DNA of 64,000 nucleotides, taken from assembly GCA_000004985.1 (NCBI GenBank), contig GG738905.1. One strand, 5' to 3'. Made by a program: the position numbers and the translations under genes. The notes under the pieces are model-generated. The model was given only the letters and a program-made list of their open reading frames with translations. It had not been told where the DNA came from and ran no database searches. Below, piece by piece: positions 4,705 through 63,659 of the stretch (positions are counted from its first letter, which is position 1; the number at the start of each line of letters is the position of its first letter). Source of the stretch: Naegleria gruberi (Eukaryota).

Positions 4705-6306
4705 CTAGTTATCTGGATTTCTGGAATCGATAACATCGAATATTGAAAGTGCTTCATCTGCCTTTGGATGTCCTTGTTTTTTGGCAATAAGGAAGAATGA
4801 ATAGGCCAACTCTCCATTTTGATTATCCAAAAAGAATTTTCCTAATACGAAACTAGCTCTAGAATTTCCCAATTTAGATGATCTTTGTAAACATGAAAAA
4901 GCATATTCCATATCAGCTTGCTCCCATTCCTGTTCAAACATATGAAGACAACCAGCTCTAAACAAAATACCAGAATTATTTGGATCGATTGACAAATATT
5001 TAGAATAGGTTTGATCTGCCAAATCCAAGTTAGGTTCCAGTAATACTTGTCCACTCTCTGAAACCTTTCCATCCTCATAGAATCCAGCCAATAAACCAAG
5101 TGCCTTAAGATTTCCATTATCTGCTGCCTTTTTTAAATATTCTAAACCTTTCAAATCATCAACTGGTGTGGCAATTCCTAAAAAGTGGAATTCAGCAACT
5201 CTCATTAAAGCATCTGGATAATTTAAATCAGCTGCCTTATTATACCATTCCAATGCCTTTTCATCACTTTTTTCAAATGATTTTCCATATTCATAAAACT
5301 CTCCCAATCTAATCGACAAATATTATTGAAATATTTCACATTATGTTACAACATTTCAATCATTAAAACTATAATTAACATACCTATACATGCATCCTGG
5401 ATTGTTCTTTTCAGCTCCAAGCTCAAACCAAACTCTAGCTGTTGTATTACTTGAAGAGAGGAATTTGGTCTTTAATGGATTTGAAATAAAGTCAAATTCA
5501 AGATAATACTCCTTATAGAATAGCATACCAGCAAAGTAATAAGCTTCTGGATAACCTGATCTGGCACTTTCTAATATAAGTGAATGAATTTGCTTTGCTT
5601 CATATGGAAGAATGAAGGTATTTCTAAGTAATTGAGCTAGTGCCAATGATTTTTCTGGAGTTTTCTCTTTAGAGTAGACTAGTGCTTTTTTCAATAATAA
5701 ATGAGTGTAAACTTGATCGATTTGAATGCTTGCATCCCCTTGTTTCGAATAGAAAACTTTCAAGTTGTGACGATCAGGTGTTGTTTCCTCCTCACTGTCA
5801 TCATTTTCAAAGTTTTCATCCACAAATAAATATTCCAAAGAAGGTAATTTCATTTCCTTCATGCAATTTTCCAATGCTTTCTTCGTAATCTTATTTCTAC
5901 TAATATCCAATAACTTTAATTGATTCCATTTTGAATGATTCATCAATAAATCCAAACATTCATCATTCAATTCACACTCAACTAATCTCAATTCCTCCAA
6001 TTCTTCCCATTCACTATTAGAAACTAACTTTCTAACACTTGATTCGTCTAAATTTCCTCCCAAAATTTGTAAAATCTTCAATCCTTTAAAATTTGAATTT
6101 TCACATATTGCATCCACTTCTTCCGAACCCACTTTCGTATTTAATAGGAATATTCTCTTCAGAGGAGTTTCAATTTTTTGTAATTCTTCCGAGGCAGTGC
6201 TACTTTCACCCAATTCGAATAAAGTTTCTTGCTCCCAATCAATGGCTTCCGAATTGTCCAACTCCTTGTTTGTGTGTGGTAAATTCATAACGTGTTCTGT
6301 TTGCAT
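4705..6306 (-). CDS. Leucine-rich-repeat (RNI-like) plus Sel1/TPR-like repeat protein. Two exons: join(5384..6306, 4705..5308).
   Basis: A 75-nt intron (GTATGT...ATTAG, 5309-5383) links ...NPGCMYR to LGEFYEYGKSFEKSDEKALEWYNKAA... in frame. LRR consensus (LxxLxLxxN) is in the N-terminal half. Repeated Sel1 motifs (A..WY.KAA..G...A) are in the C-terminal half. Confidence 0.7.
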
Positions 6307-7952: not shown

Positions 7953-9506
7953 TTACAATTCATCCTTACGAGTTGTTGGTGTAAGGATTTTGAGGTAAAT
8001 TTCAAGGATTTTCTTTTCTGATTGAATGTATCTGACAGCACATTTCTGAGACATGGTCACAGGAAGTCTTTTTCCTAGTATTGATTCATTTTCTTGTATC
8101 ATTTCAATAATATTATCCAATCTTTGTTTGATGAGTCCTCTAATTGTTTCAATGACAATCTTTTCATTTCTATCCGAAATTGGGTTGATTAGGATTTTAG
8201 CAATCATGTCTCTCTTCTGATCCAATGGTGCTAATGAATTGGCAATATCAGAGAGGGCCTTAATTTCCACTGAATCACAGCTCAATATTCTCATAATGGC
8301 AATAATATTCGGATCAAATATTTCACTGAGAGTATGTTCTACTAAATTAAAGCTATCATCATTATAGTAGAGAGTTTGTGTGAGATGATATTCATCAAGG
8401 GAGGTCATTGAGAGTAAACGCACTCTTTGATTGTTGAGCTTCTTATCGACAGTGGACATTCTCCTCATTACAGATTCTCTCATATCAATAACAGTGATAG
8501 TATTATTCAAAAACTCAATTTCTGGATCATCCAATGGACAAAAACCATAATCCATCATGAGAATATGATTCAGTGTTGGAGTTAATTTTCCATACTTTAC
8601 AAAAAGTTGATTTCCAGCTTTGACTCTCTTTGATGTTTTGAAAATGAGCTCATTGGTCTTCTTGTCAGTGTAAGAAATTACATTTGCACCAGTCTTTGAA
8701 AAGTTAATAATATCACCCAATGGAACAAAACATGAACGATCTGTCTTGATTCTGTAATCATAAATCGAGTGAATTCTAGACCAACTGAGAGAAACAAAAT
8801 GTTCAAATAATCCAAGAGTAATTGAAGAAGTGTTTCTAATTGGTTCTAATACTGTCAAATCATTCAATAATGGATTGACAATTTTTTGAAATGAATTGGC
8901 AATACTTTGTCTTCTTGTAAGAGCTGATGGAAGTAATGTAGACCCCTTCAATAATGTTAATTCTTCTCCACCAAAAAGGAATGCTACTTTTGGACCTTCA
9001 TCACGAAATGGTCTTGGTAGAGATCCAATATATGGAGTGAATTTGACAGCATCAGCATCAAACTTCATTTCAGGATTGCTTGATTGAGCCAAATTAAATA
9101 AATAAACAATCATCAAAACCATTGCATTAAAAATTGACAAATCCCCTTCCTGTAATCTCTTTAAAGTATCCAATGACTTGGCATTCTCATGTTTAAATAA
9201 TTTTTCAAATATAAATTTCGAATCCAGCAAGGTCTCTTGTTTTAATTTAAACAAAATTGTATTCTGTTTAATATCTTTAGTGGCAACAAGTGCCTTTCCA
9301 AAATCAACCACTTGTTTAATTTCAAATAAATTATCATTCACCTCCGAATGTTCCTCTTCTCTCATCCACTTTGTCAATAAATTAAATCTTTCATCATTCG
9401 ATGCCACAACAACACTCCAATGATAACAAAATACCATCATTGTCATCAATAAGAACATCATCACAAAATTCCTTGATGATGAATGATGAGCTTTCATGTT
9501 GGGCAT
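7953..9506 (-). CDS. SET-domain protein of the Rubisco-LSMT/SETD3/4/6-like class, with an N-terminal signal peptide and a C-terminal KDEL.
   Basis: Hydrophobic N-terminus (MMFLLMTMMVFCYHWSVVVA). SET N-region pattern ...W....G..........GKALVA..I..N..L...P. ...FVPLGDIINFS... and the ...LMMDYGFCPLDDP block are characteristic of LSMT-like SET domains. The protein ends ...TTRKDEL, a KDEL ER-retention signal. Confidence 0.6.
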   Translation of the reverse strand: MPNMKAHHSSSRNFVMMFLLMTMMVFCYHWSVVVASNDERFNLLTKWMREEEHSEVNDNLFEIKQVVDFGKALVATKDIKQNTILFKLKQETLLDSKFIFEKLFKHENAKSLDTLKRLQEGDLSIFNAMVLMIVYLFNLAQSSNPEMKFDADAVKFTPYIGSLPRPFRDEGPKVAFLFGGEELTLLKGSTLLPSALTRRQSIANSFQKIVNPLLNDLTVLEPIRNTSSITLGLFEHFVSLSWSRIHSIYDYRIKTDRSCFVPLGDIINFSKTGANVISYTDKKTNELIFKTSKRVKAGNQLFVKYGKLTPTLNHILMMDYGFCPLDDPEIEFLNNTITVIDMRESVMRRMSTVDKKLNNQRVRLLSMTSLDEYHLTQTLYYNDDSFNLVEHTLSEIFDPNIIAIMRILSCDSVEIKALSDIANSLAPLDQKRDMIAKILINPISDRNEKIVIETIRGLIKQRLDNIIEMIQENESILGKRLPVTMSQKCAVRYIQSEKKILEIYLKILTPTTRKDEL

Positions 9507-9864
9507 TTTTTTTAATTATAATTTTATTCTCCTATTTAACATGATTGTTGAGGATTCGCTTTGATTGTTAATAGGAGAATTGCTGAAATCAAAGCTCAAT
9601 ATTTTCTGTTTCAACTTGATCGAATTTAAAGAAAATTCCATTTGAATAATTAAAGGAATGTTTTCTCCAAGTTAAATCTCAGAGAAATGTTAATCAAGAT
9701 TGAAGCAAGGTTATGGGAATTGTCTGTTATTAGATAAGGTGCATAATAGAGCAAATTATCTGAAAAAGCAATAAAACTAAATCCCAAAAATCTCTTTTGA
9801 CTATTTTCCTTTTTGAGAAATTCGATTCATATTTTCAAACTTTGAAAATCATATTATTCAATGT

Positions 9865-10899
9865 TTATTCACAATCATCAACAGAAGTGATGCTAACATC
9901 ACATCTCCAAGTTGTTTTATACATTTTCCTTCTGATATGTTCTTCATATCTTGAAATGAAGAAATTATCTTTCAGTATAACTACTCTGCCTGATCTCCAC
10001 TCAGTAACAAGTAGGTCTCCATTTCGGTCATTCAAAGAGATACCCAGAGGATAATCAACACCAGTAACACTCTCGAGATATTCTCCCTCAGATGTGAATA
10101 TCTGTATTCTATCATTAAAGCTATCTGAAACATAAATATTTCCAGTTCTTTTCTCAACACAGACAGAACATGGCTCATTGAACTCGCCATTTTCCCTTCC
10201 TCGTTTACCAAAACTTTTGATAAACTTTCCCTCCTTAGATATTATTTGAACTCTATGATTGTATCTATCTGTAATAATTAAATTATCATCATTTCCGAAA
10301 CAAATATTTCTTGATTGAATAAATTCCAAATTCCCACTTCCATGTTTTCCAAATTCCCTCACATAATTACCGTTGGAATCTAAAACAAGAATTCTATTAT
10401 TTGCTTGATCACAAAGATAAATATTTCGCTCCTTTGAATTGAAATCAATAGCAATTCCAGAAGGTAAATTAAAACCACCAGTAGTTTTCCAAATTAATTT
10501 TCCAAAGACTGAATATTTGTACAATGTATTATCATTTGATCCAAATAATATTGTTGAATCCTCTGGATTGAACTCAATATAAAATGGAATATCTGCACCA
10601 CAATCAATTTTGTATTTCCATTCGTATGTATTTAACTCAAACACTTGAATAGCGTTATTTCCTGAATCACAAACAAATATCAGTTCTTGATTATTATCTA
10701 CGCACATATCGTATGGATTGGAAAACCTTCTATTTACTCCCAATATTTTCTTATAACAGTATCTTACATTGTTTGTGTTGATCATCACTTCCTTCCCGTC
10801 TTCTTCTTCGACAACCGTTTGCCAATCTAGTTCTTCTTCCTCTTGCAAATCATCATCATCGTAGAACATCTCATCTGTAAAATCATCATCATCTGACAT
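9865..10899 (-). CDS. NHL-repeat (six-bladed beta-propeller) protein with an acidic N-terminus, 344 aa.
   Basis: Repeated motifs: FNLPSGIAIDFNSKERNIYLCDQANNRILVLD, GNIYVSDSFNDRIQIF and NLIITDRYNHRVQII. All match the NHL consensus (G..vD..gnIyVaD..NhRIqvf). Confidence 0.75.
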   Translation of the reverse strand: MSDDDDFTDEMFYDDDDLQEEEELDWQTVVEEEDGKEVMINTNNVRYCYKKILGVNRRFSNPYDMCVDNNQELIFVCDSGNNAIQVFELNTYEWKYKIDCGADIPFYIEFNPEDSTILFGSNDNTLYKYSVFGKLIWKTTGGFNLPSGIAIDFNSKERNIYLCDQANNRILVLDSNGNYVREFGKHGSGNLEFIQSRNICFGNDDNLIITDRYNHRVQIISKEGKFIKSFGKRGRENGEFNEPCSVCVEKRTGNIYVSDSFNDRIQIFTSEGEYLESVTGVDYPLGISLNDRNGDLLVTEWRSGRVVILKDNFFISRYEEHIRRKMYKTTWRCDVSITSVDDCE

Positions 10900-18942: not shown

Positions 18943-20655
18943 TTACAATGGAATGTTGGATAATTTCTTGGTTGGATTTTCCTTCTTCTTTGTTCTTAAA
19001 ATTTCCAAATCTTCGATAATTCTTTGTCTAGTTTCGTGTGGCTTGATAACATCATCCAAGAATCCACGTTCAGCAGCAAGAAGTGGAGTAGCAAACTTAT
19101 TACGATAAGTTTCTTCACGATCCTTTTGAGTTTCTCCTTCAATACCCTTAATAATTTTAACGGCACCTTCTGGACCCATGACAGCAATTGTGGCAGTAGA
19201 CCAAGCATAGTTATAGTCACCTCTCAAGTGCTTTGAAGACATGACGTCATAAGCACCACCGTAGGCCTTTCTAGTGATAACAGTAATCTTTGGAACAGTA
19301 GCTTCAGCATAAGCGAACAAAAGCTTAGCACCGTGACGAATAATACCACCGTATTCTTGAGCAGTACCTGGCAAGAAACCTGGAACGTCAACAAAGGTCA
19401 AAATTGGAATATTGAAAGCATTGGCAAATCTAACAAAACGAGCAGCCTTAATAGAAGAGTTGATATCCAAAACACCAGCCAATTCGCAAGGTTGGTTAGC
19501 AATAATAGCAACAGTTTCACCATTCATACGAGCGAAACCAGTAATAATATTCTTAGCATAATCTGGCATAATTTCAAAGAAAGCATGATCGTCAACAATT
19601 GGCTTAATAATTGAAGAGAGCATGTTATATGGAGCATTAGTATCAGATGGAACAGCAAAGTCCAAACTCATATCCTTTCTATCAACTGGATCATTTGTAG
19701 CAAGAAGTCTACTTTCAGCATTTTCTCTGTTGCTTGATGGCAAATAGCTGATGAATTCTCTAGTGTATTTGATTAATTCAATATCATTGTCAAAGGCACG
19801 ATGAGCAACACCACTGACTTGAGTATGAGTTTGAGCACCACCCAATTGTTCGGAAGTAACAGTTTCACGAGTGACAGAGTGAACGACATCAGGACCAGTA
19901 ACAAACATATAACTTGTGTTACGAACCATGAAAATGAAATCAGTCATTGCAGGACTGTAAACAGCACCACCAGCACATGGTCCACAGATCAAGGAAATTT
20001 GTGGAACAACACCACTAGCATTAACGTTACGTTGGAAAACTTCAGCATAACCAGCTAAACTGGCAACACCTTCTTGAATTCTAGCACCACCAGAGTCATT
20101 GATACCAATAACTGGAGCACCAACTTCCATAGCCTTGTCCATAATCTTACAAATCTTTTGAGCATGAGTTTCAGAGAGAGATCCACCAAAAACAGTGAAA
20201 TCTTGACTGAAAACAAAAACTAATCTTCCATTAATTGTACCATGACCAGTAACAACACCATCACCTGCTGGTCTATCCTTTTCCATTCCAAAGTCAGTGG
20301 CTCTGTGTCTAACAAAAGCATCATATTCTCTGAATGATCCTTCATCAACGAGAAGATCAATACGTTCTCTGGCTGTAAGCTTTCCCTTTTGATGTTGTTT
20401 TTCCATTCTTTCAACACCTCCACCAAGTTTTGCTTCCTTTTTAACGTTATCAACTCTTTCTTGAAGTGTTCGCAGAATTTCTGGAGGAGCTTGTTTACTT
20501 GGAATGTCCATCACACCAGAAATATCAATTTCTGTTGGTCCTTTACTACCGGAAACTCTATTCAATTGTTGGGAGAACATTCTACTTCCCATCATGCAGG
20601 AAGTACTCTTCAACAATGAAGTATTGAATAATTTTGATGATTTACGAAGCAACAT
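18943..20655 (-). CDS. pccB: Propionyl-CoA carboxylase beta chain (carboxyltransferase subunit), mitochondrial precursor, 570 aa.
   Basis: Near-collinear similarity to PCCB across the whole length (...[18 protein letters not shown]...[14 protein letters not shown]...[12 protein letters not shown]...[26 protein letters not shown]...). The N-terminal extension is rich in S, K and R. Confidence 0.9.
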
Positions 20656-30115: not shown

Positions 30116-31540
30116 GTGGGTACTGTTCATATGAGCAATTCAGAAAAAGGAAATCTTTTCCACGCTGTCTACAAAGTAATCTCCAGGTTCAATAATCCTG
30201 TGTTCCTTGGGACGACATTTCAGATTTCAGCAATCCTCACTTCGGAAGAAGGAAGGTTTACCAACCAAATTGTTGGTAAAATGTATCCGTGGTGTCGCCA
30301 CGACGTAAAGATTGTGCTCAAAGAGAAATTCAATTTTAATTCAAGTCAACCTTTTCCACATTTGTATTCTCTGTGTTATTTACTTTCAGGCTCCCCTGAG
30401 CATTTAACATCATTCCACAGACTTCTTTTAAATGATTTAAAATCTGAAAAAACAACTATAAGCCAATCCATCAGAAATTGCTTATCAACAATTATTAGTA
30501 ACAAGGAAGATAGCTCAAGGAAACGATTGGATAGAATATTTTCTAATGAAGAAACAAGGGAGGAAATCAAAGAAACTATTTTCAATCTGCTTTTTGGAGA
30601 AAAATACATTGTGCCTCAAGATTCACTTTTAAACAACATTGTTGGAAAGGCATTCATCGAGACAGCCTTTGCACATGTGGTTCAGGTTGGTAAAAAGGAG
30701 CTTCACTTTGATATTGTTGACCCAATTTCCTTTTCAGTATATTATCAAACGATGTTTAAGAATTATAGAGGTCAATTGTGGAATCATCTCAGAAAGAATA
30801 TCAAGAAACAACAGAAGGGAATTGTATTTGAATATTTTATGCATTTATTAATACTTGAAGAAAGCGAAAAGTATGGAAGTATCAGAGATTGTAAATTATT
30901 TGCTGGCTTGCCAAAAAAGGAGTTTGAGAATTACAGTTTGAAAGTTAACAGTTTCGTACGCGCTCCTGTTTTCTCTGAACAAAGTATTGAAAGAAATGAA
31001 AGATTATCTGGGTTGTGGGTTACTCAGACTGACGGATTTTTATTAGACAATTTAGTGAAACCAGACGACAATATCGGTCCTGATTTAGTATTTTATTTAG
31101 ACAGCCAAGAAAAAGAGAAATTATTGGTTTCTACAAGTTTCAGTCTTGTTTCAGATCCTAAAGATGACAATCAAACAAATAATGCAATAAGATTATTTGA
31201 AACAACAGATCCACAAAGGATTGTAAATAAGAATGGAGAAACAACAATTGAGAATCTGGAATATTCACCTCATAAGATTGGAAACAGTTCTTTAAATGCC
31301 TACAAGAAATGTATAAGATGGTTGGTTTGTCCATTCATGAAACCAGTTGGAGTGAAATGGCTGCAGAGTAATGGCCATGAAGAATTGGCTAATCCCTTCC
31401 AATCTAACCTTCATCATCTCCTTTGGACAACAAGAAATGAACTTGACAACTGTATTGAAGGTTGGTTTGATAAGGGATATCACTCTGATATGGTTTATAT
31501 TTGGGACTATTTCAAATCCAACCATGCAACAAACGAGTAA
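30116..31540 (+). CDS. Hypothetical protein, about 470 aa. The first ATG is at 30131.
   Basis: Long ORF with coding composition. No recognisable motif. Confidence 0.4.
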   Translation: MGTVHMSNSEKGNLFHAVYKVISRFNNPVFLGTTFQISAILTSEEGRFTNQIVGKMYPWCRHDVKIVLKEKFNFNSSQPFPHLYSLCYLLSGSPEHLTSFHRLLLNDLKSEKTTISQSIRNCLSTIISNKEDSSRKRLDRIFSNEETREEIKETIFNLLFGEKYIVPQDSLLNNIVGKAFIETAFAHVVQVGKKELHFDIVDPISFSVYYQTMFKNYRGQLWNHLRKNIKKQQKGIVFEYFMHLLILEESEKYGSIRDCKLFAGLPKKEFENYSLKVNSFVRAPVFSEQSIERNERLSGLWVTQTDGFLLDNLVKPDDNIGPDLVFYLDSQEKEKLLVSTSFSLVSDPKDDNQTNNAIRLFETTDPQRIVNKNGETTIENLEYSPHKIGNSSLNAYKKCIRWLVCPFMKPVGVKWLQSNGHEELANPFQSNLHHLLWTTRNELDNCIEGWFDKGYHSDMVYIWDYFKSNHATNE

Positions 31541-31603
31541 TAAATAGTATCAATATTAAGATGTCATTATTATATTAAGATAATATTTTCTACATGAATG
31601 AGA

Positions 31604-31675
31604 TCCCGTGTAGTCCAATGGCTAGGATACCTGGCTTTCACCCAGGAGGTCCGGGTTCAATTCCCGGCATGGGAG
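31604..31675 (+). tRNA. tRNA-Glu (anticodon UUC), 72 nt.
   Basis: Cloverleaf: TCCCGTG acceptor pairs with CATGGGA. D-arm GTCCAATGGCTAGGAT. Anticodon stem CCTGG/CCAGG with loop CTTTCAC. T-arm CCGGGTTCAATTCCCGG. No encoded CCA. T-run follows. Confidence 0.9.
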
Positions 31676-31804
31676 GATAATTTTTCATTTTGCTTTTTGG
31701 CCAATCAAAATCTCATAAAACACTCTGGCCCAAATTACTTCACGCAACGCCATTGGCTTTTTATGGAAATATACTCGGGTTACTGATAAATTTTAGGTTC
31801 GCTT

Positions 31805-36545: not shown

Positions 36546-36750
36546 ATGATTATTTTCAAATGTTTCTAATACCTTAATAAAGCCAGAACCATTCTGCAAA
36601 CTCTTATTGCAAACAAATTTCAAGAAATGTTGGAAATCCTATAGAAGTGAGTTCATTTGGAACAAGCTTCAATTAAACAATTTAAAATCAATTGTATAAG
36701 ATTAAGGTACTATTTTCATTATTAAGGTACTATTTTTACTATGAATGAGA

Positions 36751-36822
36751 TCCCGTGTAGTCCAATGGCTAGGATACCTGGCTTTCACCCAGGAGGTCCG
36801 GGTTCAATTCCCGGCATGGGAG
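36751..36822 (+). tRNA. tRNA-Glu (anticodon UUC), second identical copy.
   Basis: Identical 72-nt sequence to 31604-31675. The identity extends over 13 bp of 5' flank (atgaatgagat). T-run (tctttttacc) downstream. Confidence 0.9.
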
Positions 36823-37784
36823 GGTCCTTTTGCATATCTTTTTACCAGGCAAGGAATGTAAAACAGTTAAATTTTGAAGTAAACTTCTTGATACAAGTAA
36901 TATTTTCAATGTACCAACCTTCTCATCTTTACTCTCAATGAGCCTAACACCAAGTCTTTCACTTGCCCAATTGAATGCAAGCCTCACACAAAGAAAACTT
37001 GCTTCTCCTCCATGAATGGCCTATCAAAAGTACATACTTATCCTTCAAAGCATGGAAAATTAATTATGGAGACGGGAGCTTGGACCTTCACGTGATACGT
37101 GATGGTGGTTGCTGCCACTAAAACAATTCAAAGGGAGCCTACTTTGATTTTTCACAGTATTTTAACACTTCTTTGATTGAATTGTAACAGTATGTAAATA
37201 AATTAAATTAATCCTAAAAACATAAAATTTTTATGATTTCTTATGAAATGTTAAATGTTAATAGTAAGAACCAGAGTGTGACCAGAAAATATAATATCTT
37301 AGTGGTTGTTATTGTCACATTTCAATTATTATTTTGGACGGGAAGCCTGCCAGGAATATGGCAACAATCCCGCTACAGTCTTTGACTGTATGAACAGTGA
37401 AGGCAACTAATCTATTGATTGTTGGTTCAGTAAGTTATTGTTTAGAAAAGCTTGCTACGTGACCATCTATTTATCACCTTTAAATTTGATCTAATTAGAA
37501 AGAAACTTGTGGTTGATCAATAAACGATAAAATTTCGAATTTGAGTCTTCAAATATTGAAATAGTGTTCAAGATTAAAAGACTCAGCACCACAGGTTCCC
37601 AAGTTGTCTCCAACCTCAGTACTGATGTGGCTCGACGATGCTTAACTTCTCAAATCGGACGGGATGAGGTGCACTAAATTTATTAATAGAAACATGTCAT
37701 TCCAAAATTGTAAAATGATTAGCAAATCTAGGTTTCGATATTTTGAGGAAGGGGAAGTCTATTGAAACTTTATAATCTTGCTTA

Positions 37785-39510: not shown

Positions 39511-39583
39511 TGCCGACACCAGGGATCGAACCAGGGACCTTAAGATCTTCAGTCTTACGCTCTCCCAACTGAGCTATGTCGGC
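39511..39583 (-). tRNA. tRNA-Phe (anticodon GAA), 73 nt.
   Basis: The reverse complement reads GCCGACATAGCTCAGTTGGGAGAGCGTAAGACTGAAGATCTTAAGGTCCCTGGTTCGATCCCTGGTGTCGGCA. This is a canonical tRNA-Phe cloverleaf with a T-run downstream. Confidence 0.9.
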
Positions 39584-39833: not shown

Positions 39834-41402
39834 ATGTCAAGCAGTAGACCAACAAGAGAAAGAAGATTACCAATTCATTTGGAAGATTATATCGTTGGTG
39901 AATTAGATTTACGAAAGAATTATGAAAAGGAAGAAAAGAAGAAACAAAAATTATTATTAAAGAAGAAGGCTGAAATTTCAAAGAAGGAACAAGCTGAAAA
40001 GAGAAAGAAAGAAGCCATAGAAGCAACAAAGAAAAAGAAGGAAGCTGTTAAAAAATCTATTAGAAAAAAGCCATCTTCATCATATTATACTTCATCTTCA
40101 ACAACAATTTCTAAAAGATCTTCATCTGCAATTACACCATATACAGATTATACTAATCCAAAATTTAAAGTTTTTACATCAACATCTGAAGCTAGAAACA
40201 AATTAATTGAAAAAACACCTGGTAATAAGATTTTAAAAGGGTCAGATGATGCTTCTAAATGGTCAATGTCAAAATTAGATACATCTATCAGATACAAATC
40301 ACTTAATATTTCAGATATTTTAAGTGGATGTTATTATGTACCTGGTAATAATCACAAATTAGATACAACTGGTAGTGATAGAGTACCTGCAGTTCAAATT
40401 TGTTTTTCATTTGATACAACTGGTTCAATGTCTTCATATTTAAATAATTTGAAATTTAAATTACAAACAATATGTCAACAATTAATGAATGATGTTAGAG
40501 GTTTAGAAATTGCAATTATTGCACATGGTGATTATGAAGATTCTAAAGATAATGGTTCATATTGTTTATACAAATTAGATTTTACAACAGATATTGAACA
40601 AATTATTTCATTTGTTCAATCAATTAATTCAACAAGTGGTTATGATGGTGATGAATGTTATGAAGCTGTTTTATTAGAAGCTCAATCTTTATCTTGGGTT
40701 AATGTTGAAAATACATTTACAAATAGATCACTTGTTGTAATTGGTGATGCTGATCCTCACAAATCAACTGAATGGTTTAATATTGATTGGAAACAAGAAA
40801 CAAGTAATTTATTTGATAATCATCATGTTAAAATTCATAGTGTTAGATGTGGTTCATCTTCATGGTCAACAAAAGATTTTTACAAAACAATTTCAGAAGA
40901 AACAGGTGGATCTGAATATTTATTAGATACATTTGAAAAAACAATTGAAATGTTTTGTGGATTAATTTATAGAGAAGCTGCTGATAATATTATGATGAAT
41001 GATACAACAATGCAAGCACATATTGATGGAGCAGTTTCAGGTGAAGTTACAATTGTTAAACCAACAATGTCTTCAAGTGATAAGATGATTGATGATGGTG
41101 AAAAGAGTGATGATATTACATCATTAGGTTCATATATTGTTACAGATGATGATATTTTAAAGATTCACACTGCAATTCATAGTACTTGTACAGAAGTTAA
41201 AATTAATGGTATTGAATTTGCAATTCAAATGAATGAAAGTTCATGTAGATTTGTAAGAGTTGATGGAGTTGTCTATATTGAACAAAATAAGGAAAAGAAG
41301 ACTAAGTATGCCAAGATGGCTTTAGAAGGAAAGAAATTAACTTGGATTTGTCATGCTGGTAATTGGGGTCTTATCATTGATGATAAAATTGAAAAGAGAT
41401 AG
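39834..41402 (+). CDS. von Willebrand factor A (vWA) domain protein with a K/E-rich N-terminus, 522 aa.
   Basis: MIDAS-like motif ...ICFSFDTTGSMSSYL... and downstream ...GDADPH... The N-terminus is a charged KKEEK repeat region. An S-rich linker follows. Confidence 0.55.
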   Translation: MSSSRPTRERRLPIHLEDYIVGELDLRKNYEKEEKKKQKLLLKKKAEISKKEQAEKRKKEAIEATKKKKEAVKKSIRKKPSSSYYTSSSTTISKRSSSAITPYTDYTNPKFKVFTSTSEARNKLIEKTPGNKILKGSDDASKWSMSKLDTSIRYKSLNISDILSGCYYVPGNNHKLDTTGSDRVPAVQICFSFDTTGSMSSYLNNLKFKLQTICQQLMNDVRGLEIAIIAHGDYEDSKDNGSYCLYKLDFTTDIEQIISFVQSINSTSGYDGDECYEAVLLEAQSLSWVNVENTFTNRSLVVIGDADPHKSTEWFNIDWKQETSNLFDNHHVKIHSVRCGSSSWSTKDFYKTISEETGGSEYLLDTFEKTIEMFCGLIYREAADNIMMNDTTMQAHIDGAVSGEVTIVKPTMSSSDKMIDDGEKSDDITSLGSYIVTDDDILKIHTAIHSTCTEVKINGIEFAIQMNESSCRFVRVDGVVYIEQNKEKKTKYAKMALEGKKLTWICHAGNWGLIIDDKIEKR

Positions 41403-52961: not shown

Positions 52962-53062
52962 AAAAAATTAAAAATGAAAAATCTAGAAAAAAATGGGTAT
53001 TAATCTGAGGTTATTTAAAAAATAGATACACATCTTCAGTGTCTAAATTTTGAGAATCAACT
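52962..53062. repeat. Copy 1 of a roughly 100-bp dispersed repeat (...aaaatgaaaaat.tcag.aaaaaaat.ggtat.aatctgaggttatttaaaaa...acacatctt.agtgtctaaattttgaga...). It lies 80-180 bp from tRNA-Gly copy 1.
   Basis: About 85% identity to 59884-59982 in the same orientation. Non-coding. Confidence 0.55.
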
Positions 53063-53121
53063 ACCATCTAATGGTTACTACATACTATTCAAAAATTGAG
53101 AATGGACATTGAAAGTTGGAT

Positions 53122-53256
53122 GAAAGAAAAAGAAGCGACTGCGTCGACCGGGAATTGAACCCGGGTCACGGCGATGGCAACGCCGTATTCTACCACTAAA
53201 CCATCGACGCTTCACATTTATTTAGAATGTAACCTTAATTCGACACTAAGGGGATC
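53122..53256. repeat. Roughly 135-bp segment (tRNA-Gly plus about 50 bp of 5' flank and 18 bp of 3' flank) duplicated in inverted orientation at 59570-59702.
   Basis: The reverse complement of 59570-59702 matches 53122-53256 with two or three mismatches or indels. Confidence 0.8.
53140..53210 (-). tRNA. tRNA-Gly (anticodon GCC), 71 nt.
   Basis: The reverse complement reads GCGTCGATGGTTTAGTGGTAGAATACGGCGTTGCCATCGCCGTGACCCGGGTTCAATTCCCGGTCGACGCA. This is a canonical cloverleaf with a T5 terminator in the 3' flank. Confidence 0.9.
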
Positions 53257-54271: not shown

Positions 54272-55372
54272 TTACAAAAATCTAGAAACATTCTTTCCAA
54301 AATCTTCATATTCATGCCTGTCTAACCAAACTTCTCGGAAGGTGGACATGGAAGAAAATATAGATCCTCCAATCCATGAGGAGTATTTTCTGGTAGGTTT
54401 CTCACTCACTTTACATTCGACACTTGAGGGAATCAAGTTTGAAAATTCCCTGTTGAATCTTTCAATAAATCCTGGAAACATTGTATTTCCTCCACAGACA
54501 ACAATGTTCTTAAATAAATCCTTTCTCATATCAATATCAGAACTTCTAATAGAACTATTAACTAATTCGTGAACTCCAACAAAATCAAGATCCATCAATT
54601 GAGGTTGGAACATTAATTCAGTTGCCTTGATTCTAAGTGTTGATACATTCATTATTGTTCCATCAGGTAACTCATATTCTTCAGTCTTTGGTTCTGTCAA
54701 CTCCTTTTCATAATTTTGAGCAACATAGCAGACTTTTCTCTTGGCATCTCCTGCAATTTCTCTTTCTGCAGCAGTGTAGCTTTGATATCCTGACTCCAAT
54801 AAGAGTGAATACAACGATCTAGTTAAATCCCCTCCTCCGAATGGTATTGTTTGCAAAGCGTTTCTAATTGGTTTTCCTTCATAAATAGGAAGAGCATAGG
54901 TCAGCTCTTTACCTGAATCCAAAACTGTTCCACTCACAATTCCAGAACTTTGCATAGCCATCACACCTTGAACTGAAAAATATAGAGCAGGAACTCCAAA
55001 TGATTCAAACAAAATTTCCATAATTTTCTCTCTACCTTCCACAGTATTGACAGGAGAATCAGCTATTAGTAAGGGATGATCCATTGGATCTACTCTCAAT
55101 TCATTCTTAAAACAATGAGCAAATATCTTTTGCAAATGATCGAAATTCGTGATGGATCCTCTTTGGAAAGGATGGCTAATATTCAATATTCCCCTCTTAC
55201 TCAAAGCATCGGATCCAACATATTCCCCTAACTGGAGAACATTCATCTTCTTGAATTGCCCCAAACATGTTGGAAGATCAACCCTTGGAGCATCATCTCC
55301 TGAAAACCCACATTTTGTATGACCAGAACCAATATCAAAAACTAAGCCCTGAGGAAGTTCATCTTGTTCCAT
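54272..55372 (-). CDS. Divergent actin / actin-related protein, 366 aa.
   Basis: Collinear with actin at about 40% identity (...FDIGSGHTKCGFSGDDAPR...SKRGIL...HPLLIADSPVN...REKIMEILFESFGVPALYF...DSGKELTYALPIYEG...KYSSWIGGSIFSSMSTF...). Confidence 0.75.
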   Translation of the reverse strand: MEQDELPQGLVFDIGSGHTKCGFSGDDAPRVDLPTCLGQFKKMNVLQLGEYVGSDALSKRGILNISHPFQRGSITNFDHLQKIFAHCFKNELRVDPMDHPLLIADSPVNTVEGREKIMEILFESFGVPALYFSVQGVMAMQSSGIVSGTVLDSGKELTYALPIYEGKPIRNALQTIPFGGGDLTRSLYSLLLESGYQSYTAAEREIAGDAKRKVCYVAQNYEKELTEPKTEEYELPDGTIMNVSTLRIKATELMFQPQLMDLDFVGVHELVNSSIRSSDIDMRKDLFKNIVVCGGNTMFPGFIERFNREFSNLIPSSVECKVSEKPTRKYSSWIGGSIFSSMSTFREVWLDRHEYEDFGKNVSRFL

Positions 55373-57465: not shown

Positions 57466-59031
57466 TTACTCATAGCACTTATCGAAGTATTCAACAAATG
57501 ATGAATGTGAAATGGATGCCACAAATCTTCCTATGCTTAAATCATAGTACTCCTTAATGGAGTCATAATCTGCATCACCACTAACTCTAGATATATTTGC
57601 ATGCATTACAAGGTGGTGAATTAGCGATTCATTTTCAATAAAATGTTTCTTGACAAGATTGTGAACTTTTCCTTCTGACCAATTAGTAATTGGTTCGTAT
57701 TGAATGTCCATTGATTGAGGAATAATCTCTACATATGGAATCTCTCTTAATAAATCACATTCTAAAAATCTTTCCAATATTGAAAATCCTTGCAACGAGA
57801 TTCTCAATAGTTTGGGAAATCTTTTTCTTGTTAGCCCAGCAATAATATTCTTTTCAATTTTTTCATAATTCTCAATATTTTCGCAATATTCAGGGCAGTC
57901 GTATCGAATAGTCAGATCACGAACATTTGGAAATACTCCCTCTTCCTCTAGAAAATTTGAATAGAGTAATGCACCTTCATCAAAGTAGGTAATTGTACTA
58001 AAACGAAAACATAGATATTGAATATGATCTGGTATAGAAAATCCCTGATAGGTCCACTCATTTAAATTAATTGATAAAGCAATGTAATTCGAAGCCATTT
58101 GCTTAAAAATAGAAAAATCTTGTAAATTATTCAAATCAACCATTAATCCAAGGGCCTTTGTATCAGAAAAATTTTGAGTGAATAGTCCTTTAGAAATTAA
58201 GCAACAATTTTCAAAAGTATCATAACTGTTATAATATCCACTATGTTTTTCGCTATCAAAGTGTGAAATCATATCCAAAGATAACATGAGAGCCTTGTGT
58301 AAAAACAAATCATATGCTAAAATTTGATTATGCTCTTCTATCTTTTCAAATTTTTCATTTGAAAACATTAACTGTTGAATTCTTCTCTCAAATTGTTGAT
58401 TAACTTCATGAGTATCAAATTCATTCTCAATTTCTGTTATATCAACATTAGCACCGCCCCAACTATCAATACATTCTGAAGTATCAATTATATCAGCATA
58501 CTCTCTATTGCAATTCATTTCTGTGGTCTCAATTAATTTCTGCATTTTCACATAACCAATTGATTCCCCAACTGAAATATCCCCTTTTGCCAATGACAAT
58601 CCCTCCGATGATGCAAATCTCTGCCAATAAACAACCATCTCCAAAACATTTGAAACTCTCCTCCAAAATTCATTCATCTCCACAACAAATAATGCTTTAA
58701 ATTTCTTAGATACAGCACAACAAAACTTTTGTATCGTCCTCACAGTACTCAAATCCAATCGTTCAATCATCCGAGGTTGAACCACTTTTTTAAATTTCAT
58801 AATTTGATCATGATTATTTAATTCAATTTGATGAAGTGGTCCGAGCCAATACTCGAAAATACAACACTGCCAAATTTCCGTTGGAATTTCCAACAACTGA
58901 TGATCTTCTTTCATTTTTAATTTTTGTTGAAATTCGAAATTGTGGTTGATTGATGTAAAAATAGATTTGTAATTTTGAATTAAGGCTAAATTGGGAATCA
59001 ATTTTGTAAGATTGTCCAGCATTAGTGCCAA
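57466..59031 (-). CDS. Hypothetical protein (521 aa), possibly with a degenerate F-box and LRR-like C-terminus.
   Basis: Single long ATG ORF with coding composition. The N-terminal ...LEIPTEIWQCCIFEYWLGPLHQIE... segment is weakly F-box-like. Confidence 0.45.
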   Translation of the reverse strand: MALMLDNLTKLIPNLALIQNYKSIFTSINHNFEFQQKLKMKEDHQLLEIPTEIWQCCIFEYWLGPLHQIELNNHDQIMKFKKVVQPRMIERLDLSTVRTIQKFCCAVSKKFKALFVVEMNEFWRRVSNVLEMVVYWQRFASSEGLSLAKGDISVGESIGYVKMQKLIETTEMNCNREYADIIDTSECIDSWGGANVDITEIENEFDTHEVNQQFERRIQQLMFSNEKFEKIEEHNQILAYDLFLHKALMLSLDMISHFDSEKHSGYYNSYDTFENCCLISKGLFTQNFSDTKALGLMVDLNNLQDFSIFKQMASNYIALSINLNEWTYQGFSIPDHIQYLCFRFSTITYFDEGALLYSNFLEEEGVFPNVRDLTIRYDCPEYCENIENYEKIEKNIIAGLTRKRFPKLLRISLQGFSILERFLECDLLREIPYVEIIPQSMDIQYEPITNWSEGKVHNLVKKHFIENESLIHHLVMHANISRVSGDADYDSIKEYYDLSIGRFVASISHSSFVEYFDKCYE

Positions 59032-59613
59032 ATTTGTATTCTTTTAAGATGATTGAGTTAGAGGCATTATTAATTGTAGGCCAATCATCGAGGCAAGTTT
59101 CTTCAATATAGTTGTCAAATGAACACTATGAAGTATTACACTTGAGGTTAAGGCGCATTTCCTTCAACAAAAAAAACAACTCAAAATAAACACTTTAACA
59201 TGAAGTTCTCAATTTTGGCTCTTTTCCTGTACTATTTGTCTGCTCACTCTATTACATTAGAAAAAGACAGTTCTTAACTGATGCTTTGTGCCACATTACG
59301 GCAATTGCTAATACTTAGACCTACTCTGAATATATATTTATTGTGAATTGATTGCATTACAGTTCTATTGTAAAGATCAATGGCACTGTAATCAACAGTC
59401 AAATTTATCATCATTTATGGGTATGGCTGCAATGTGGATTACAATATCAACTAATAAGCAGTTTATATTCTCCATTATGGATATTATATTATATAATATT
59501 TGGATTGGATGATTGAAGGCGCAAAATAGTTTACCTTATCCGAAAAATTAAAGTAACTGGTAACTTCGTATCCCTTAGTGTCGAATTAAGGTTACATTCT
59601 AAATGAATGTGAA

Positions 59614-59684
59614 GCGTCGATGGTTTAGTGGTAGAATACGGCGTTGCCATCGCCGTGACCCGGGTTCAATTCCCGGTCGACGCA
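59614..59684 (+). tRNA. tRNA-Gly (anticodon GCC), second copy. It is in inverted orientation relative to the copy at 53140-53210.
   Basis: Identical 71-nt sequence. T5 terminator (gtcgcttctttttc) downstream. Confidence 0.9.
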
Positions 59685-59883
59685 GTCGCTTCTTTTTCTT
59701 TCATGGTCCATTCTCAATTTTTGAATATCATGTAGGAACCGTTTGAGGGTAGCTTGTGCCTTAGATGACTGATTGTATGGAGTAAAAAAATTCTTCTCAT
59801 TTTTTTTTGAAATCACAAATATTAGCATATTATGATTCCTTTTTGGACTAATAATTCCATTTACTTTTAATTAAAACCATTTA

Positions 59884-59982: not shown

Positions 59983-60433
59983 TCTAAATTGTTTTATCCT
60001 TCCTTTTGTTATGATAGAGAGATGGTCTTACTCGCCTCGCATATTAAGCATGGATTACGAATGTTTGATCCAAAATTCAGATAATCCAATAATTGCATTG
60101 GAATATTTGAAAAATCACGCCGACAAATAATATGACTTGGATAAGGACTTGTTTAATTTGAATTTCGTTATCAAAGCAGTGGATCTTAATTCAGAAGTTT
60201 TTGACGTAGTATAATTTCTATCAAAACGATCCTAGTGTCATGCTGAAAGCAGCTTTTGGAGGTGGTCCTAATGTAAAAGGTTTATGTAAGATTAAGGATT
60301 TCACTCTTATCAAGAAGGTAATGAAAGCGAATCCACTCGCTCTTAAAAATTGTAAAGAAATTCAGATAAATGGGCCCACTAGCTCATAAAAGGTAGAATT
60401 ATATCAACACAAGAATTTTAACATAAATGTGCT

Positions 60434-60504
60434 CGTCTCGTGGTGTAATGGTAGCATAGTGGACTTTGAATCCATTGACGGAGGTTCGATTCCTCCCGAG
60501 ACGG
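60434..60504 (+). tRNA. tRNA-Gln (anticodon UUG), 71 nt.
   Basis: CGTCTCG acceptor pairs with CGAGACG. D-arm GTGTAATGGTAGCAT. Anticodon stem GTGGA/TCCAT with loop CTTTGAA. T-arm GGAGGTTCGATTCCTCC. Discriminator G. T-run about 30 bp downstream. Confidence 0.85.
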
Positions 60505-60630
60505 TAAACGTGGCGAGCCATGAAATTTTTAACTCATTTTTTTAACATTACAATGTTAACTTGGTAAATTCTGGAAACTTGAAAAAAAAATGTATTTCAG
60601 TGTAGCTGATCCCAATAGGATCATGAGGTA

Positions 60631-61644
60631 TTATCTTGAATTAAGAGAACATGAGTAATATTTTCTGTGTGCTTTACCAACAAGCAGTGATAATAGACTT
60701 TGAATTTCATGCCAATTATCAATGATTTTAGGATTATAGGATTTAACTAAAATAATATTTAAAGCCTTAATAAAGCCTCTATGATTTAAATTGAGAATTG
60801 AATTGTGTCTATCCCAAAAAGTGTCATGGGGACGAAGCTTACAGGATGCTCCTGTAAGATTCGTGAATTTAGTTAAGAAATATCTTCTAAAACATTCGGT
60901 TTCTTCACAGTAGTATATGAAACGTTCCAAATCCACTTCACATTCACAGTTATCACAATAAACTTGACGAAATTGTCTAATATGTGAGTCGGTCATGTTT
61001 CTCCAAATTGACAATTTGGTTTCAGTGTCAAATCTTTGATCCATATATTTCAAATTGATATGAGTGAGGGACTGACTTTGGTTAAAAGGTAAGTCAGATT
61101 TATCCTCAAAAATATCTAAATATTCTTTTCTCTGGATATCTTTGATGTATTTTCTATAGTCAAAGATGATTGTTTTCTTATTAGTATTAATTAAAATCTT
61201 TTGGTTTTGGGATAATAGTTTGGTAATATCAATCATATTTTGTCCTTGTGCACCTTCTTTTGCTAATTTATCAACTATAATATTCTCTGGATCTTCATGC
61301 CCTTTCACTTTAACTAGATGGATATTTAAATGTTTATCCTTAATGGTACCAAAGAATTCTTCTTGAAATCCTTGAAAGTCTCCTCTGTAACTCTTTTTTA
61401 AAACTTCTATAGCAACTTGACTATCAGTAGGAACATTAGCATTGGAATGATTTGGCAGCATTTTGATTGCTGTCAAAAAAGCCATGATTTCAGCCACGTT
61501 ATTGGAATATTCTTCATGAATCTTGAAGGAATATTTGAAACTTCTATTTTCTGAATTAAATATATTAATTCCAAATCCCACTTGGTTTTCAATCTTTGAT
61601 CCATCTGTGTGAATATTAAATGAATGACCCCCATTTGATCCAAA
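60631..61644 (-). mobile_element. 5'-truncated retroelement fragment. It contains an RNase H domain plus a Cys-rich C-terminal region (ORF2/pol C-terminus), and its 3' end faces tRNA-Gln about 125 bp away (TRE3-like geometry).
   Basis: All five RNase H catalytic residues are present in context: ...IHTDGSK..., ...NNVAEIMAFLTAI..., ...VPTDSQVAIE..., ...VKVKGHEDPEN..., ...IVDKLAKEGAQ. This is followed by about 190 aa containing CDNCECEVD...YYCEETEC. There is no in-frame ATG, TAA/TGA stops sit directly upstream, and there is no RT domain. The sense strand points toward the 3' side of the adjacent tRNA gene. Confidence 0.55.
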
Positions 61645-61682
61645 TTAAAATCATTAAATTGTTAAAAAAAACTTGAAAAAAA

Positions 61683-63659
61683 ATGTCATCATTTGAACAA
61701 CCCACCAAAAAGATAAAACTTTCCAGTGATCATCAAGTTCTGGTTCACCTCTCAGATCGTGCCTTCTCATCGGAAGAGACAACATTCCAACATCTCAAGA
61801 AACAATTAGGAGGTGAAAAGATAGAATCCTCTCTAATTGATTTAAAGATAATTCACCAATTGGAATGTATTAGAATTGATTGTAGTAGTATCCGTGCTAC
61901 TTGTGTTGCTACATGTCAAAAGAAGAAGGAATTATTTGTTGCATGTACTGATTGTAAAATTCGAGTCTATGATGTAGAGAGTAGAGAATTGAAGAGGACG
62001 ATCTCTACATTTGATTATATTCCAACTCGAATGGTCGTAGGGGATGAAGGTGAATTTATTGTTTTTGTTACTAATAGTAGAAAACAATGGGCCATTATTA
62101 GATTGGGTTTGTTGGGTGAGGAAAAGATTGATTGGGAAGTATGTAAAGATAACTCGTCCAAGTGTGAATTGATTTATAGAAAGGCAACTAGTGAAATATT
62201 TGTTGCCAATTGGAAAGCCCATAAGATTTTGGTGTTGGATGCAATCAGTGGCTCTTTAAAGTATGAAATTGCAAATGAAAATACTAAATCAGTTCAAAGT
62301 TTATACTATGATGAAAAGACTGAAAGTCTTTACGCATTTACTTCCCTTTCTTTGTATACCTATCAAGAATATAATGGAAATTATATGGGAAAATGTCATT
62401 TATTGAGATTATATGGAGAGAATTATGTGAATTGTGAGGTTCTTATTGAATTTGATGAGGAAGAATATAAGTTGAATAATAAGGGATTTTCCGGTATTAT
62501 TATGGATCTCTCAGCTCCTTATTATTTGCTTTCACAACAATCTTTAGTTTATTTGTTTGATAGAAACTCAAAGAAGTTAGTCTCCAAGATCAACACTGTC
62601 CATGAAAACTCCCGAGATGTTCTTCGTTATTCGTACAATCCTTCGAATAATGAGCTTTACAGAATTGGAGGAGATGAATCATTGGTTGAAATTTTACAAT
62701 TATGCAAAGTTGAAACCAACCATATTGATATACCGTTGAGTAGTAATAATTGCCAATTAATTGAAAAGTTGGGTGGTGTCTTGCCGAAACAAATTGTGAA
62801 ATACAGATACAATAATGAATACATACTGTCAGATGCACTTGCATATTTCATGAACATACAATTCCCTAAAAATGTAATGTTCAGATTTAATGTTAGTACC
62901 CCAAGTGAAACAGAGAACACAGAGGGAGATGAAAACCATGAAATGGAAGATGATGAAGAGGAATCCTCAAAAAGTCAAGTAAAAGATGAGGATGATGAAG
63001 AGGAAGAAGAGGAAGATTATTTGGTACCTTTTCCATTTAAATATTCAAACACAAAAGATAGGTCAAATGAGATTCCTCCTGAGGCTAGTAATTGGTTGAA
63101 AGAAAATCCTGATGGAATAATTATTGGAGGAGACTTTAATACAGATAGATTGGGAGAGGCTATCCAATTCGCATATGCTGTAAAAATAACAGAAACTGAC
63201 AATGATGACTTTCCAATATATATTCTCTTTGAGGATGGACCAGAACGGTACAAACTCTCTAAATTTCTTTCAAATTTGAAAGCTGTTTCTTCCTTTGATT
63301 TGACATCGTATTTCCTACCAAAGAAGGCCAAATATGAAATTGATTTTTCAAAAATTTATAATGAGCTAATCAACACAAAAGTCATTAATCCAGAAACAAA
63401 ACAAATAGATCCTGTCATTCTACTTGATGCTTACAGAAACCTTACTTCTGTTAATGATGACAAACATCATCAAATTTTCACAATTTGCTCCATAATCTTC
63501 AACGACGAAACCATTACTTTTGATAATGTCAAATTTAGAAAAAATGATTTGCTTGCTTTAATGCTATTTTACGATATTGATGCTATGGAAGAAAGCGATA
63601 ATCATCAACTGCTTAGGGCTAATTTTGAAGATCAAGAGTACGAAGATGTGTTTTGCTAG
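61683..63659 (+). CDS. Hypothetical protein (658 aa) with an internal acidic (D/E-rich) tract.
   Basis: Long ATG-initiated ORF with typical composition. No recognisable motif. Confidence 0.5.
   Translation: MSSFEQPTKKIKLSSDHQVLVHLSDRAFSSEETTFQHLKKQLGGEKIESSLIDLKIIHQLECIRIDCSSIRATCVATCQKKKELFVACTDCKIRVYDVESRELKRTISTFDYIPTRMVVGDEGEFIVFVTNSRKQWAIIRLGLLGEEKIDWEVCKDNSSKCELIYRKATSEIFVANWKAHKILVLDAISGSLKYEIANENTKSVQSLYYDEKTESLYAFTSLSLYTYQEYNGNYMGKCHLLRLYGENYVNCEVLIEFDEEEYKLNNKGFSGIIMDLSAPYYLLSQQSLVYLFDRNSKKLVSKINTVHENSRDVLRYSYNPSNNELYRIGGDESLVEILQLCKVETNHIDIPLSSNNCQLIEKLGGVLPKQIVKYRYNNEYILSDALAYFMNIQFPKNVMFRFNVSTPSETENTEGDENHEMEDDEEESSKSQVKDEDDEEEEEEDYLVPFPFKYSNTKDRSNEIPPEASNWLKENPDGIIIGGDFNTDRLGEAIQFAYAVKITETDNDDFPIYILFEDGPERYKLSKFLSNLKAVSSFDLTSYFLPKKAKYEIDFSKIYNELINTKVINPETKQIDPVILLDAYRNLTSVNDDKHHQIFTICSIIFNDETITFDNVKFRKNDLLALMLFYDIDAMEESDNHQLLRANFEDQEYEDVFC

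Follow-up and report, generated by a model that had tools for sequence, protein, structure and literature searches.

A 5'-truncated LINE copy at the start-codon A-tract of a Naegleria gruberi gene, and the target context of its lineage

Introduction

Why a reading frame for ribonuclease H (RNase H) without a start codon should lie close to the 3' end of a tRNA gene is the question raised by one locus of Naegleria gruberi. The locus is part of a stretch of 64,000 nucleotides of contig GG738905.1 (assembly GCA_000004985.1), which is referred to below as the window. A sequence-only reading of the window had described the minus-strand open reading frame (ORF) at this locus as a truncated retrotransposon without long terminal repeats (LTRs), placed downstream of tRNA-Gln(UUG) by the position-specific integration known from the TRE3 elements of dictyostelids. 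The first part of this description agrees with the present analysis and the second does not. The segment 60594-61668 is very probably a dead-on-arrival, 5'-truncated copy of a heterolobosean long interspersed nuclear element (LINE) of the apurinic/apyrimidinic endonuclease (APE) type, which entered the A-tract at a start codon, has the tRNA gene as an incidental neighbour, and belongs to a lineage with an apparent preference for the target A(6-9)TG. The features of the locus are listed in Table 1. Loci outside the window are numbered with the prefix L, and proteins with the prefix P.

Table 1. Features of the LINE insertion and its surroundings in the window
Feature	Position	Strand	Details and basis
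LINE fragment (whole insert)	60594-61668	minus	1,075 bp
In-frame ORF2 remnant	60631-61644	minus	337 codons and stop; RNase H and lineage-specific C-terminal region
RNase H domain	61249-61620	minus	Pfam PF00075 and alignment to E. coli RNase HI
CX2CX7HX4C zinc-knuckle-like motif, C-terminus of ORF2	60907-60957	minus	family alignment
3' untranslated region (UTR) of the element, ending ...CACTGAAAT	60594-60630	minus	37 nt; comparison with sister copy L001
Single-nucleotide deletion (GGAGGG to GGGGG), shifts the ORF2 frame	~61631	minus	nucleotide alignment with L001
Out-of-frame 5' remnant of ORF2 (homology to ~61655) and ~13 nt of sequence at the junction left by the 5' truncation	61645-61668	minus	
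Left copy of the target-site duplication, AAACTTGAAAAAAAAATGT	60575-60593	plus	19 bp; abuts the element 3' end
Right copy of the target-site duplication, AAACTTGAAAAAAAATGT	61669-61686	plus	18 bp; includes the ATG of the target gene
Target gene NAEGRDRAFT_59434	61683-63659	plus	658 aa; exact match to EFC38677.1
tRNA-Gln(UUG), neighbour and not part of the element	60433-60505	plus	ARAGORN; Rfam RF00005, 68.8 bits

Target-site duplication and empty site

The segment is an insertion of a 5'-truncated LINE, bounded by a target-site duplication (TSD) in which the A-tract, the target gene's ATG and one further base are contained. A sister copy is present on metagenome contig L001, positions 273-1347 of which match window positions 61655-60582 with 98.4% nucleotide identity (BLASTN). 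The TSD in the window is 18/19 bp long and reads AAACTTGAAAAAAAA(A)TGT, and both of its copies sit at the edges of the homology to L001. The 15-mer core of the repeat occurs twice in the 64 kb, against 0 occurrences expected from 100 dinucleotide-preserving shuffles. The unoccupied target was found on contig L004; this contig and L001 derive from one metagenome sample, and L004 represents a closely related strain in which the ATG of NAEGRDRAFT_59434 comes next after tRNA-Gln. Positions 1-136 of L004 correspond to window 60458-60588 (the 3' half of tRNA-Gln and the sequence downstream of it) with 90% identity, and positions 130-1281 correspond to window 61677-62829 (NAEGRDRAFT_59434) with 99.1% identity. 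The junction on L004 reads ...GGTAAATTCTGGAAACGAAAAAAATGTCATCATTTG... and holds the target once, as AAACGAAAAAAATGT; the 1,075 bp that the repeats enclose in the window are missing. As a result of the insertion NAEGRDRAFT_59434 retains only 14 bp of its native upstream sequence, which are the bases of the duplicated target ahead of its ATG, the remainder being displaced by 1.09 kb. A TSD of variable length (18/19 bp in the window, 9-16 bp in N. fowleri), with neither LTRs nor terminal inverted repeats, is as expected for a LINE. The existence of an empty-site allele makes the insertion polymorphic, and the family was therefore active recently.

Two other readings of the junctions were considered and rejected. 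A plus-strand retrocopy ending in the A8 tract at 61663-61670 does not agree with L001, which shares the minus-strand end ...CACTGAAAT, nor with the empty site, which defines the TSD. The T-run is not part of a 3' tail of the element either, as it is also present in the 5' copy of the TSD and in the empty site.

Reading frame, domains and decay

The minus-strand frame has no ATG at its head and three stop codons just upstream, and no reverse transcriptase (RT) domain was found in it, so that translation and domain search agree with what had been read from the letters. The first ~130 residues match the Pfam RNase_H profile over positions 4-140 of 141 with E=2e-14. An alignment of the family profile with E. 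coli RNase HI places the segments TDGS, VAEI, TDSQ, KGHED and VDKL on D10, E48, D70, H124 and D134, which confirms a complete active site with the five catalytic positions D-E-D-H-D. The Cys-rich tail that had been noted contains a CX2CX7HX4C motif, although the window copy does not carry it intact. The cysteines C305, C308 and C321 do not vary in the family alignment, and 4/4 relatives keep the His (VDLEHFIYYC), whereas the window copy has Arg in its place (VDLERFIYYC). A Pfam search of the region that follows the CCHC motif gave no match. The 3' UTR differs from the 3' end of L001 at one position up to ...CACTGAAAT(A), beyond which the flanks diverge. In the same alignment a poly(A) tail is absent and ...CACTGAAAT abuts the TSD directly; a poly(A) or simple-repeat tail is typical of LINEs, though not universal. 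The GC content of the window is ~0.32-0.33, in keeping with N. gruberi.

Within the 3' UTR, positions 60601-60617 (minus) read TGATCC-TATTG-GGATCA, a potential hairpin of 6 bp that lies 7 nt before the 3' end. The stem carries one mismatch in L001 (TGATAC). From its sequence and position, this hairpin could be the structure by which the RT recognizes the 3' end.

The edge of the ORF is not the edge of the element. The apparent end at 61644 results from the single-nucleotide deletion near 61631, which shifts the frame: LDQMEGHSF of the sister-copy protein P0001 is spread over two frames in the window, as LDQMG and GHSF. In a global alignment, homology to the sister copy runs past 61644 in another frame to ~61655-61668. 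In total the window copy differs from L001 by 13 substitutions and one deletion of 1 nt. The window fragment is a decayed copy with one frameshift and a His to Arg change in the CCHC motif, and taken alone it is an ordinary dead LINE copy. An upstream intron and exon that would supply a start codon was also considered and rejected, given that ~40 nt are available, that no plausible GT...AG intron is present, and that the edge is due to the 1-nt deletion.

It is exceedingly unlikely that the ORF belongs to a gene of the cell, whether a host gene for RNase H or a domesticated retroelement gene, with a start supplied by an upstream exon or an internal Met. The catalytic residues are intact and the frame is mostly open, and the first 214 residues of a gene model of the Joint Genome Institute, NAEGRDRAFT_59433 (P0016; EFC38750.1; 720 aa), correspond to the fragment (60844-61485, minus). 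However, residues 204-720 of this model are an unrelated ORF of 521 aa at 57466-59031 (minus; model segment 57469-59019), and to reach it the model requires an intron of ~1.8 kb that spans both tRNA-Gln and tRNA-Gly. The chimera is very likely an annotation artefact. The TSD on both sides and the frameshift relative to a 98%-identical sister copy, together with the changed zinc motif, also speak against a cellular gene, as does the distance of ~40 nt from the head of the ORF to the divergent ATG, which leaves no space for an upstream exon. A stand-alone RNase H gene would have a start codon and a conserved syntenic position; the fragment lacks the former and is absent from the orthologous site in L004, where the flanking gene is 99% identical, which shows that the segment is dispensable and was recently inserted.

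LINE family and relatives

A search with the ORF returned P0001 (412 aa, on L001), which is 98% identical, and the N. gruberi protein P0002, annotated as 'RNase H', which is 46% identical. A family profile (A1) built from these sequences was scanned against 1.8 billion representative proteins and gave 2,029 protein matches at E<=0.001. The strongest of these cover the RNase H domain and the tail entirely and are located at the C-termini of long proteins. P0020 (1213 aa) has Exo_endo_phos_2 at 108-225, RVT_1 at 471-718 and RNase_H at 892-1016; P0017, P0018 and P0025 have RVT_1 and RNase_H domains, with a full-length profile match at their C-termini. Intact ORF2s with APE, RT and RNase H are present in N. 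fowleri at L005 and L020, so that homology to an ORF2 with APE and RT runs through the C-termini of these proteins and of P0020. The window fragment corresponds to residues 847-1178 of P0186, an N. fowleri ORF2 of 1203 aa, at 43% identity. The link of the window copy to an RT runs through such paralogous families (33-46% identity), as no full-length RT-containing copy of its own family, that of the 98%-identical relatives, was recovered. This match to the C-terminal third of an ORF2, together with the TSD and the empty-site allele, bears out the description of the fragment as the remnant of a 5'-truncated non-LTR element that has lost its RT. Judged from its relatives, a full-length element would have an ORF1 and an ORF2, the latter in the order APE endonuclease, RT, RNase H and CCHC tail.

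The lineage is also represented in N. gruberi (e.g. NAEGRDRAFT_60001, 1179 aa) and in N. lovaniensis, and in N. fowleri it forms two clusters, with 14 and 30 members (>=90% identity). The next relatives are from Willaertia magna and Acrasis kona, both Heterolobosea. End-to-end relatives were seen in Naegleria and environmental contigs only, and an Acrasis protein matches most of the fragment. The best named match outside the Heterolobosea is a plant L1-like protein with E=9e-14, which is too weak for placement in a clade. The window copy, L001 and L003 are truncated or partial. At the seven N. fowleri loci examined, three copies of 5.62 kb (99.75-99.84% identical) are accompanied by truncated copies of 1.3-1.4 kb with the same 3' end, as expected of a multi-copy LINE; two more copies at these loci belong to a second family, and the two families share ~67% nucleotide identity. 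They end in ...TTAGA and ...TTTTTTCAA, without poly(A). The 64-kb window holds one fragment of the lineage, and a metagenome scan for further copies returned distant RNase H genes only (27-33% identity).

The N. fowleri loci L016 (VFQX01000044.1) and L017 (VFQX01000049.1) contain the same truncated insertion with identical flanks and TSD. L017 has two tandem copies of it, the first followed by an N-gap, beside arrays of DUF4116 genes. The repetition reflects either segmental duplication or assembly redundancy, and L016 and L017 were counted as one insertion event.

The tRNA-Gln neighbour

The distance of about 125 bp that had been given between the element and tRNA-Gln is correct for the stop codon (125 bp from the 3' end of the tRNA); the 3' terminus of the element at 60594 is 88 bp away. 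The empty site shows how this spacing arose. Before the insertion tRNA-Gln was already located ~85 bp upstream of the ATG of NAEGRDRAFT_59434, and the element entered the A-tract at that ATG. The proximity to the tRNA is incidental and was inherited from the target site.

The geometry agrees with a TRE3-type element, which would recognize the transcription complex of RNA polymerase III and integrate downstream of tRNA genes, at a distance of ~100 bp: the 3' terminus of this non-LTR element, in a compact protist genome, faces the tRNA-Gln 3' end (60505) tail to tail, and the window is rich in tRNA genes (6 in total). Nevertheless such an element is very unlikely here. Elements of the TRE group, including TRE3, 'always' lie ~100 bp downstream of tRNA genes, encode an ORF2 in the order APE, RT and zinc finger without RNase H, terminate in poly(A), and occur only in dictyostelids (PMC5006619). 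The present element has RNase H, lacks poly(A) and resides in Naegleria gruberi, which is no dictyostelid, and no dictyostelid protein was found among the matches whose source was looked up; neither the assignment to a dictyostelid-type element nor that to the TRE3 type is thus upheld. The spacing between tRNA and ATG predates the insertion, as described above, and the copies elsewhere have no such neighbour. The 98%-identical copy L001 has 290 bp of 3' flank without a tRNA, and the short contigs L002 and L003 carry none either. Seven N. fowleri loci were examined with 5-kb flanks around the annotated gene; no tRNA was found within 5 kb of the preserved 3' ends (L005, L016, L017, L018, L019 and L020), and the sole tRNA among the seven loci lies 3 kb from the 5' end of the element at L021. 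In the window itself, no LINE fragment lies near any of the five remaining tRNA genes.

A shared insertion motif

The readable 5' junctions, viewed in the orientation of the element, have a feature in common. The flank ends in CAT followed by T(5-9), with the TSD starting at the T-run, in the window, L003, L005, L016/L017, L018, L019, L020 and L021; on the opposite strand this corresponds to A(6-9)TG. The motif is thus present in 8/9 independent insertions, which belong to three families. The junction of the window copy is GATGA-CATTTTTTTTCAAGTTT with a TSD of 18/19 bp. Those of L018 (cggCA-TTTTTTTATGTCGGCT; TSD 16 bp), L016/L017 (gctCA-TTTTTTTGTTAATGG; TSD 15 bp) and L020 (gacCA-TTTTTTTTGTTGTTC; TSD 15 bp) are of the same form. 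L005 and L019 each have a shorter repeat (TSD ~9-10 bp) with 6-7 extra nt at the 5' junction, and from L021 (CATTTTTTCG) and L003 (tgtCATTTTTTC) the 5' junction only is available. In 6/8 cases an annotated gene or long ORF, directed away from the element, starts at the ATG of the motif. These are NAEGRDRAFT_59434 in the window, the gene at 3-398 in L003, the gene at 2298-3005 in L005, the DUF4116 gene at 4277-4903 in L016, the gene at 2702-3371 in L020 and the Trm112p gene at 2840-3360 in L021. The element is always inserted antisense to the ATG of the motif. Judged by these junctions, the A-tract/ATG start context appears to be the target of the lineage, with the element antisense to the gene. 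Directly 3' of the N. fowleri LINE at L005, positions 8625-10300 form a long, open, unannotated region that is coding-like and repeat-like; the adjoining of this region to the 3' end of the copy may explain the short or unclear TSD of L005.

How far such a pattern would arise by chance depends on the background, which differs between the two species. In the flanks of the N. fowleri loci, runs of A>=6 are followed by TG in 13/105 cases (12%) and runs of A>=7 in 5/35 (14%), whereas 6/6 independent N. fowleri events are located at the motif (p ~4e-6).

Several points weigh against a preference for this motif. In the N. gruberi window, 20/50 (40%) of the runs of A>=7 and 52% of those of A>=8 are followed by TG, and with a background of 40% the window copy does not by itself distinguish between 'A-tract' and 'A-tract + ATG'. 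The 3' flank of L001, AAAATTTTTTTT, has an A8 tract followed by TTTT and not by TG. The ATGs at L018 and L019 open merely 28 and 5 codons, and the common denominator is therefore the motif and not the start of a gene as such. The target motif is drawn from no more than nine independent events, of which two or three belong to the N. gruberi-type family. Selection, as well as the preference of the enzyme, may shape the set of retained copies.

These points are taken up by another account, according to which this is an ordinary LINE with a loose preference for A/T-rich sites, as in L1, and the pattern is a product of base composition, compact intergenic regions and survivorship. The target of L001, the N. 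gruberi background of 40-52%, the small sample and the position of L018 and L019 away from evident gene starts all agree with it. It is nonetheless an unlikely account, since all six N. fowleri insertions, from two families, are at A(6-9)TG against a background of 12-14%. The TSD always begins at the T-run, so that the nick register is fixed relative to the motif, and the orientation is always antisense to the ATG. Moreover, insertions that separate a gene from its upstream sequence should be counter-selected and not favoured. An apparent A-tract/ATG preference is part of the reading of the locus that we regard as very probable.

The motif is also frequent at start codons of the window, and such a run is a common start context in N. 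gruberi: runs of A>=6 directly precede the ATG in 10/24 of the long ORFs that start with ATG. Examples with A(6-9) are the ORFs at 5356-6306 (-), 18943-20655 (-) and 54272-55372 (-). By its recurrent position, the A-run before the ATG may be a core promoter, an initiator or a translation-start signal.

Proposed mechanism

Integration would take place by target-primed reverse transcription. The APE endonuclease would nick the A-tract strand on the 3' side of the run, at a distance of 0-4 nt; in the window this nick would be on the plus strand, at AAAAAAAATG(T)^C at the start codon of NAEGRDRAFT_59434, and in N. fowleri it would be at A7^TG or A7T^G. The freed 3'-OH would prime the synthesis of cDNA from the 3' end of the RNA (...CACUGAAAU), which for the window copy would have been aborted after ~1.07 kb. 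A second nick, ~18 bp upstream in the window and 9-19 bp across the copies, would give rise to the TSD. In this scheme the element would always be antisense to the ATG because the motif fixes the primer strand.

A more far-reaching proposal is put forward tentatively, as a serious possibility short of a favoured one: the heterolobosean LINEs may constitute an undescribed site-specific class that nicks the A(6-9)TG start context and lies head-to-head with the host gene, perhaps sharing a promoter through the TSD. The class would have members in Naegleria gruberi and N. fowleri, and perhaps also in Willaertia and Acrasis. The element may then always be located 15-20 bp upstream of the ATG of the host gene, head-to-head with it, and the TSD would preserve the immediate start context of that gene.

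In the full-length N. fowleri elements, ~15-30 nt separate the 5' end from the ATG of ORF1 (L018 876-892, L005 3018-3046 and L020 3384-3402), and this ATG is preceded by an A6-A8 tract (CGACGCAAAAAAAATG and GAAGCCCTTAAAAAATG). Such an interval leaves almost no space for a conventional internal promoter in the 5' UTR, and the elements may therefore use the duplicated A-tract for their own transcription. From its arrangement, the duplicated A-tract may act as a bidirectional core promoter or initiator for transcription of the element.

Comparison with known LINEs

APE-type LINEs with RNase H and a C-terminal CCHC motif are known from the I, Ingi, Tad1, LOA and R1 types, and plant L1 elements also have RNase H. 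The Naegleria elements resemble the I, Ingi, Tad1, LOA and R1 types in having an ORF1 and an ORF2, in the order APE, RT, RNase H and CX2CX7HX4C, in their frequent 5' truncation, and in TSDs of 9-19 bp, which are consistent with target-primed reverse transcription. In contrast to those types, the Naegleria families have no poly(A) or A-rich tail and each has a defined 3' end, and no Pfam match was obtained for what follows the CCHC motif; the likeness is one of architecture.

Site-specific LINEs are known to insert into rDNA (R1/R2), telomeric repeats (TRAS/SART) and spliced-leader genes (CRE/SLACS), others into tRNA genes or microsatellites. The short motif, the fixed orientation and the fixed nick register of the Naegleria elements are shared with the sequence-specific R1/R2, TRAS/SART and CRE/SLACS elements, whereas the Naegleria motif is the A-tract and ATG of many single-copy protein genes and not a multicopy RNA gene or repeat. 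The human L1 endonuclease prefers 5'-TTTT/AA-3', and the primer strand of L1 terminates in T's, which pair with the poly(A) tail. L1 and the Naegleria elements have in common that an APE-type nick falls at the border of a homopolymeric A/T tract and that the TSD starts at this tract. The polarity is reversed: the Naegleria primer strand has the A-tract (+0-3 nt) at its end, and a poly(A) tail is absent from the element. To our knowledge, no LINE has been described whose target is the start-codon A-tract of ordinary protein genes. A search of the literature gave no relevant result on LINEs of Naegleria or the sites that they target; Repbase was outside this search.

Other features of the window

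Five long ORFs of the window are identical to the annotated N. gruberi NEG-M proteins NAEGRDRAFT_73465, NAEGRDRAFT_73466, NAEGRDRAFT_59430, NAEGRDRAFT_73484 and NAEGRDRAFT_59434, which are all encoded on one scaffold. A giant virus as the source of the DNA, considered in view of the low GC content, the tRNA genes and the densely packed ORFs with few introns, was rejected on the strength of these identities to nuclear proteins. NAEGRDRAFT_59430 (522 aa; 39834-41402, plus) has a weak match to VWA_4 (E=6e-5), lies 250 bp from tRNA-Phe (39511-39583, minus), and has two paralogues of >=90% identity on two other N. gruberi scaffolds. On this sequence similarity the gene was duplicated recently or is possibly mobile. 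The two tRNA-Gly(GCC) genes are part of inverted duplicates of ~190 bp (53061-53252 and 59572-59752, 90% identity), and the two tRNA-Glu(UUC) genes are part of direct duplicates of ~160 bp (31539-31698 and 36686-36843, 86% identity). As the duplicates include the flanks, the tRNA genes were copied together with them.

Implications

The fragment exposes NAEGRDRAFT_59433 as a chimeric gene model of the reference annotation, in which the RNase H of a transposon is joined to an unrelated ORF. Where a genome is very compact, 'safe havens' such as tRNA genes or rDNA are the expected destination of retrotransposons. A LINE lineage that lands antisense on start-codon A-tracts would, if the target preference is true, represent a different solution. 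It would also raise the questions of how the struck genes stay expressed, where the core promoters of Naegleria lie, and how an APE endonuclease reads A(n)TG.

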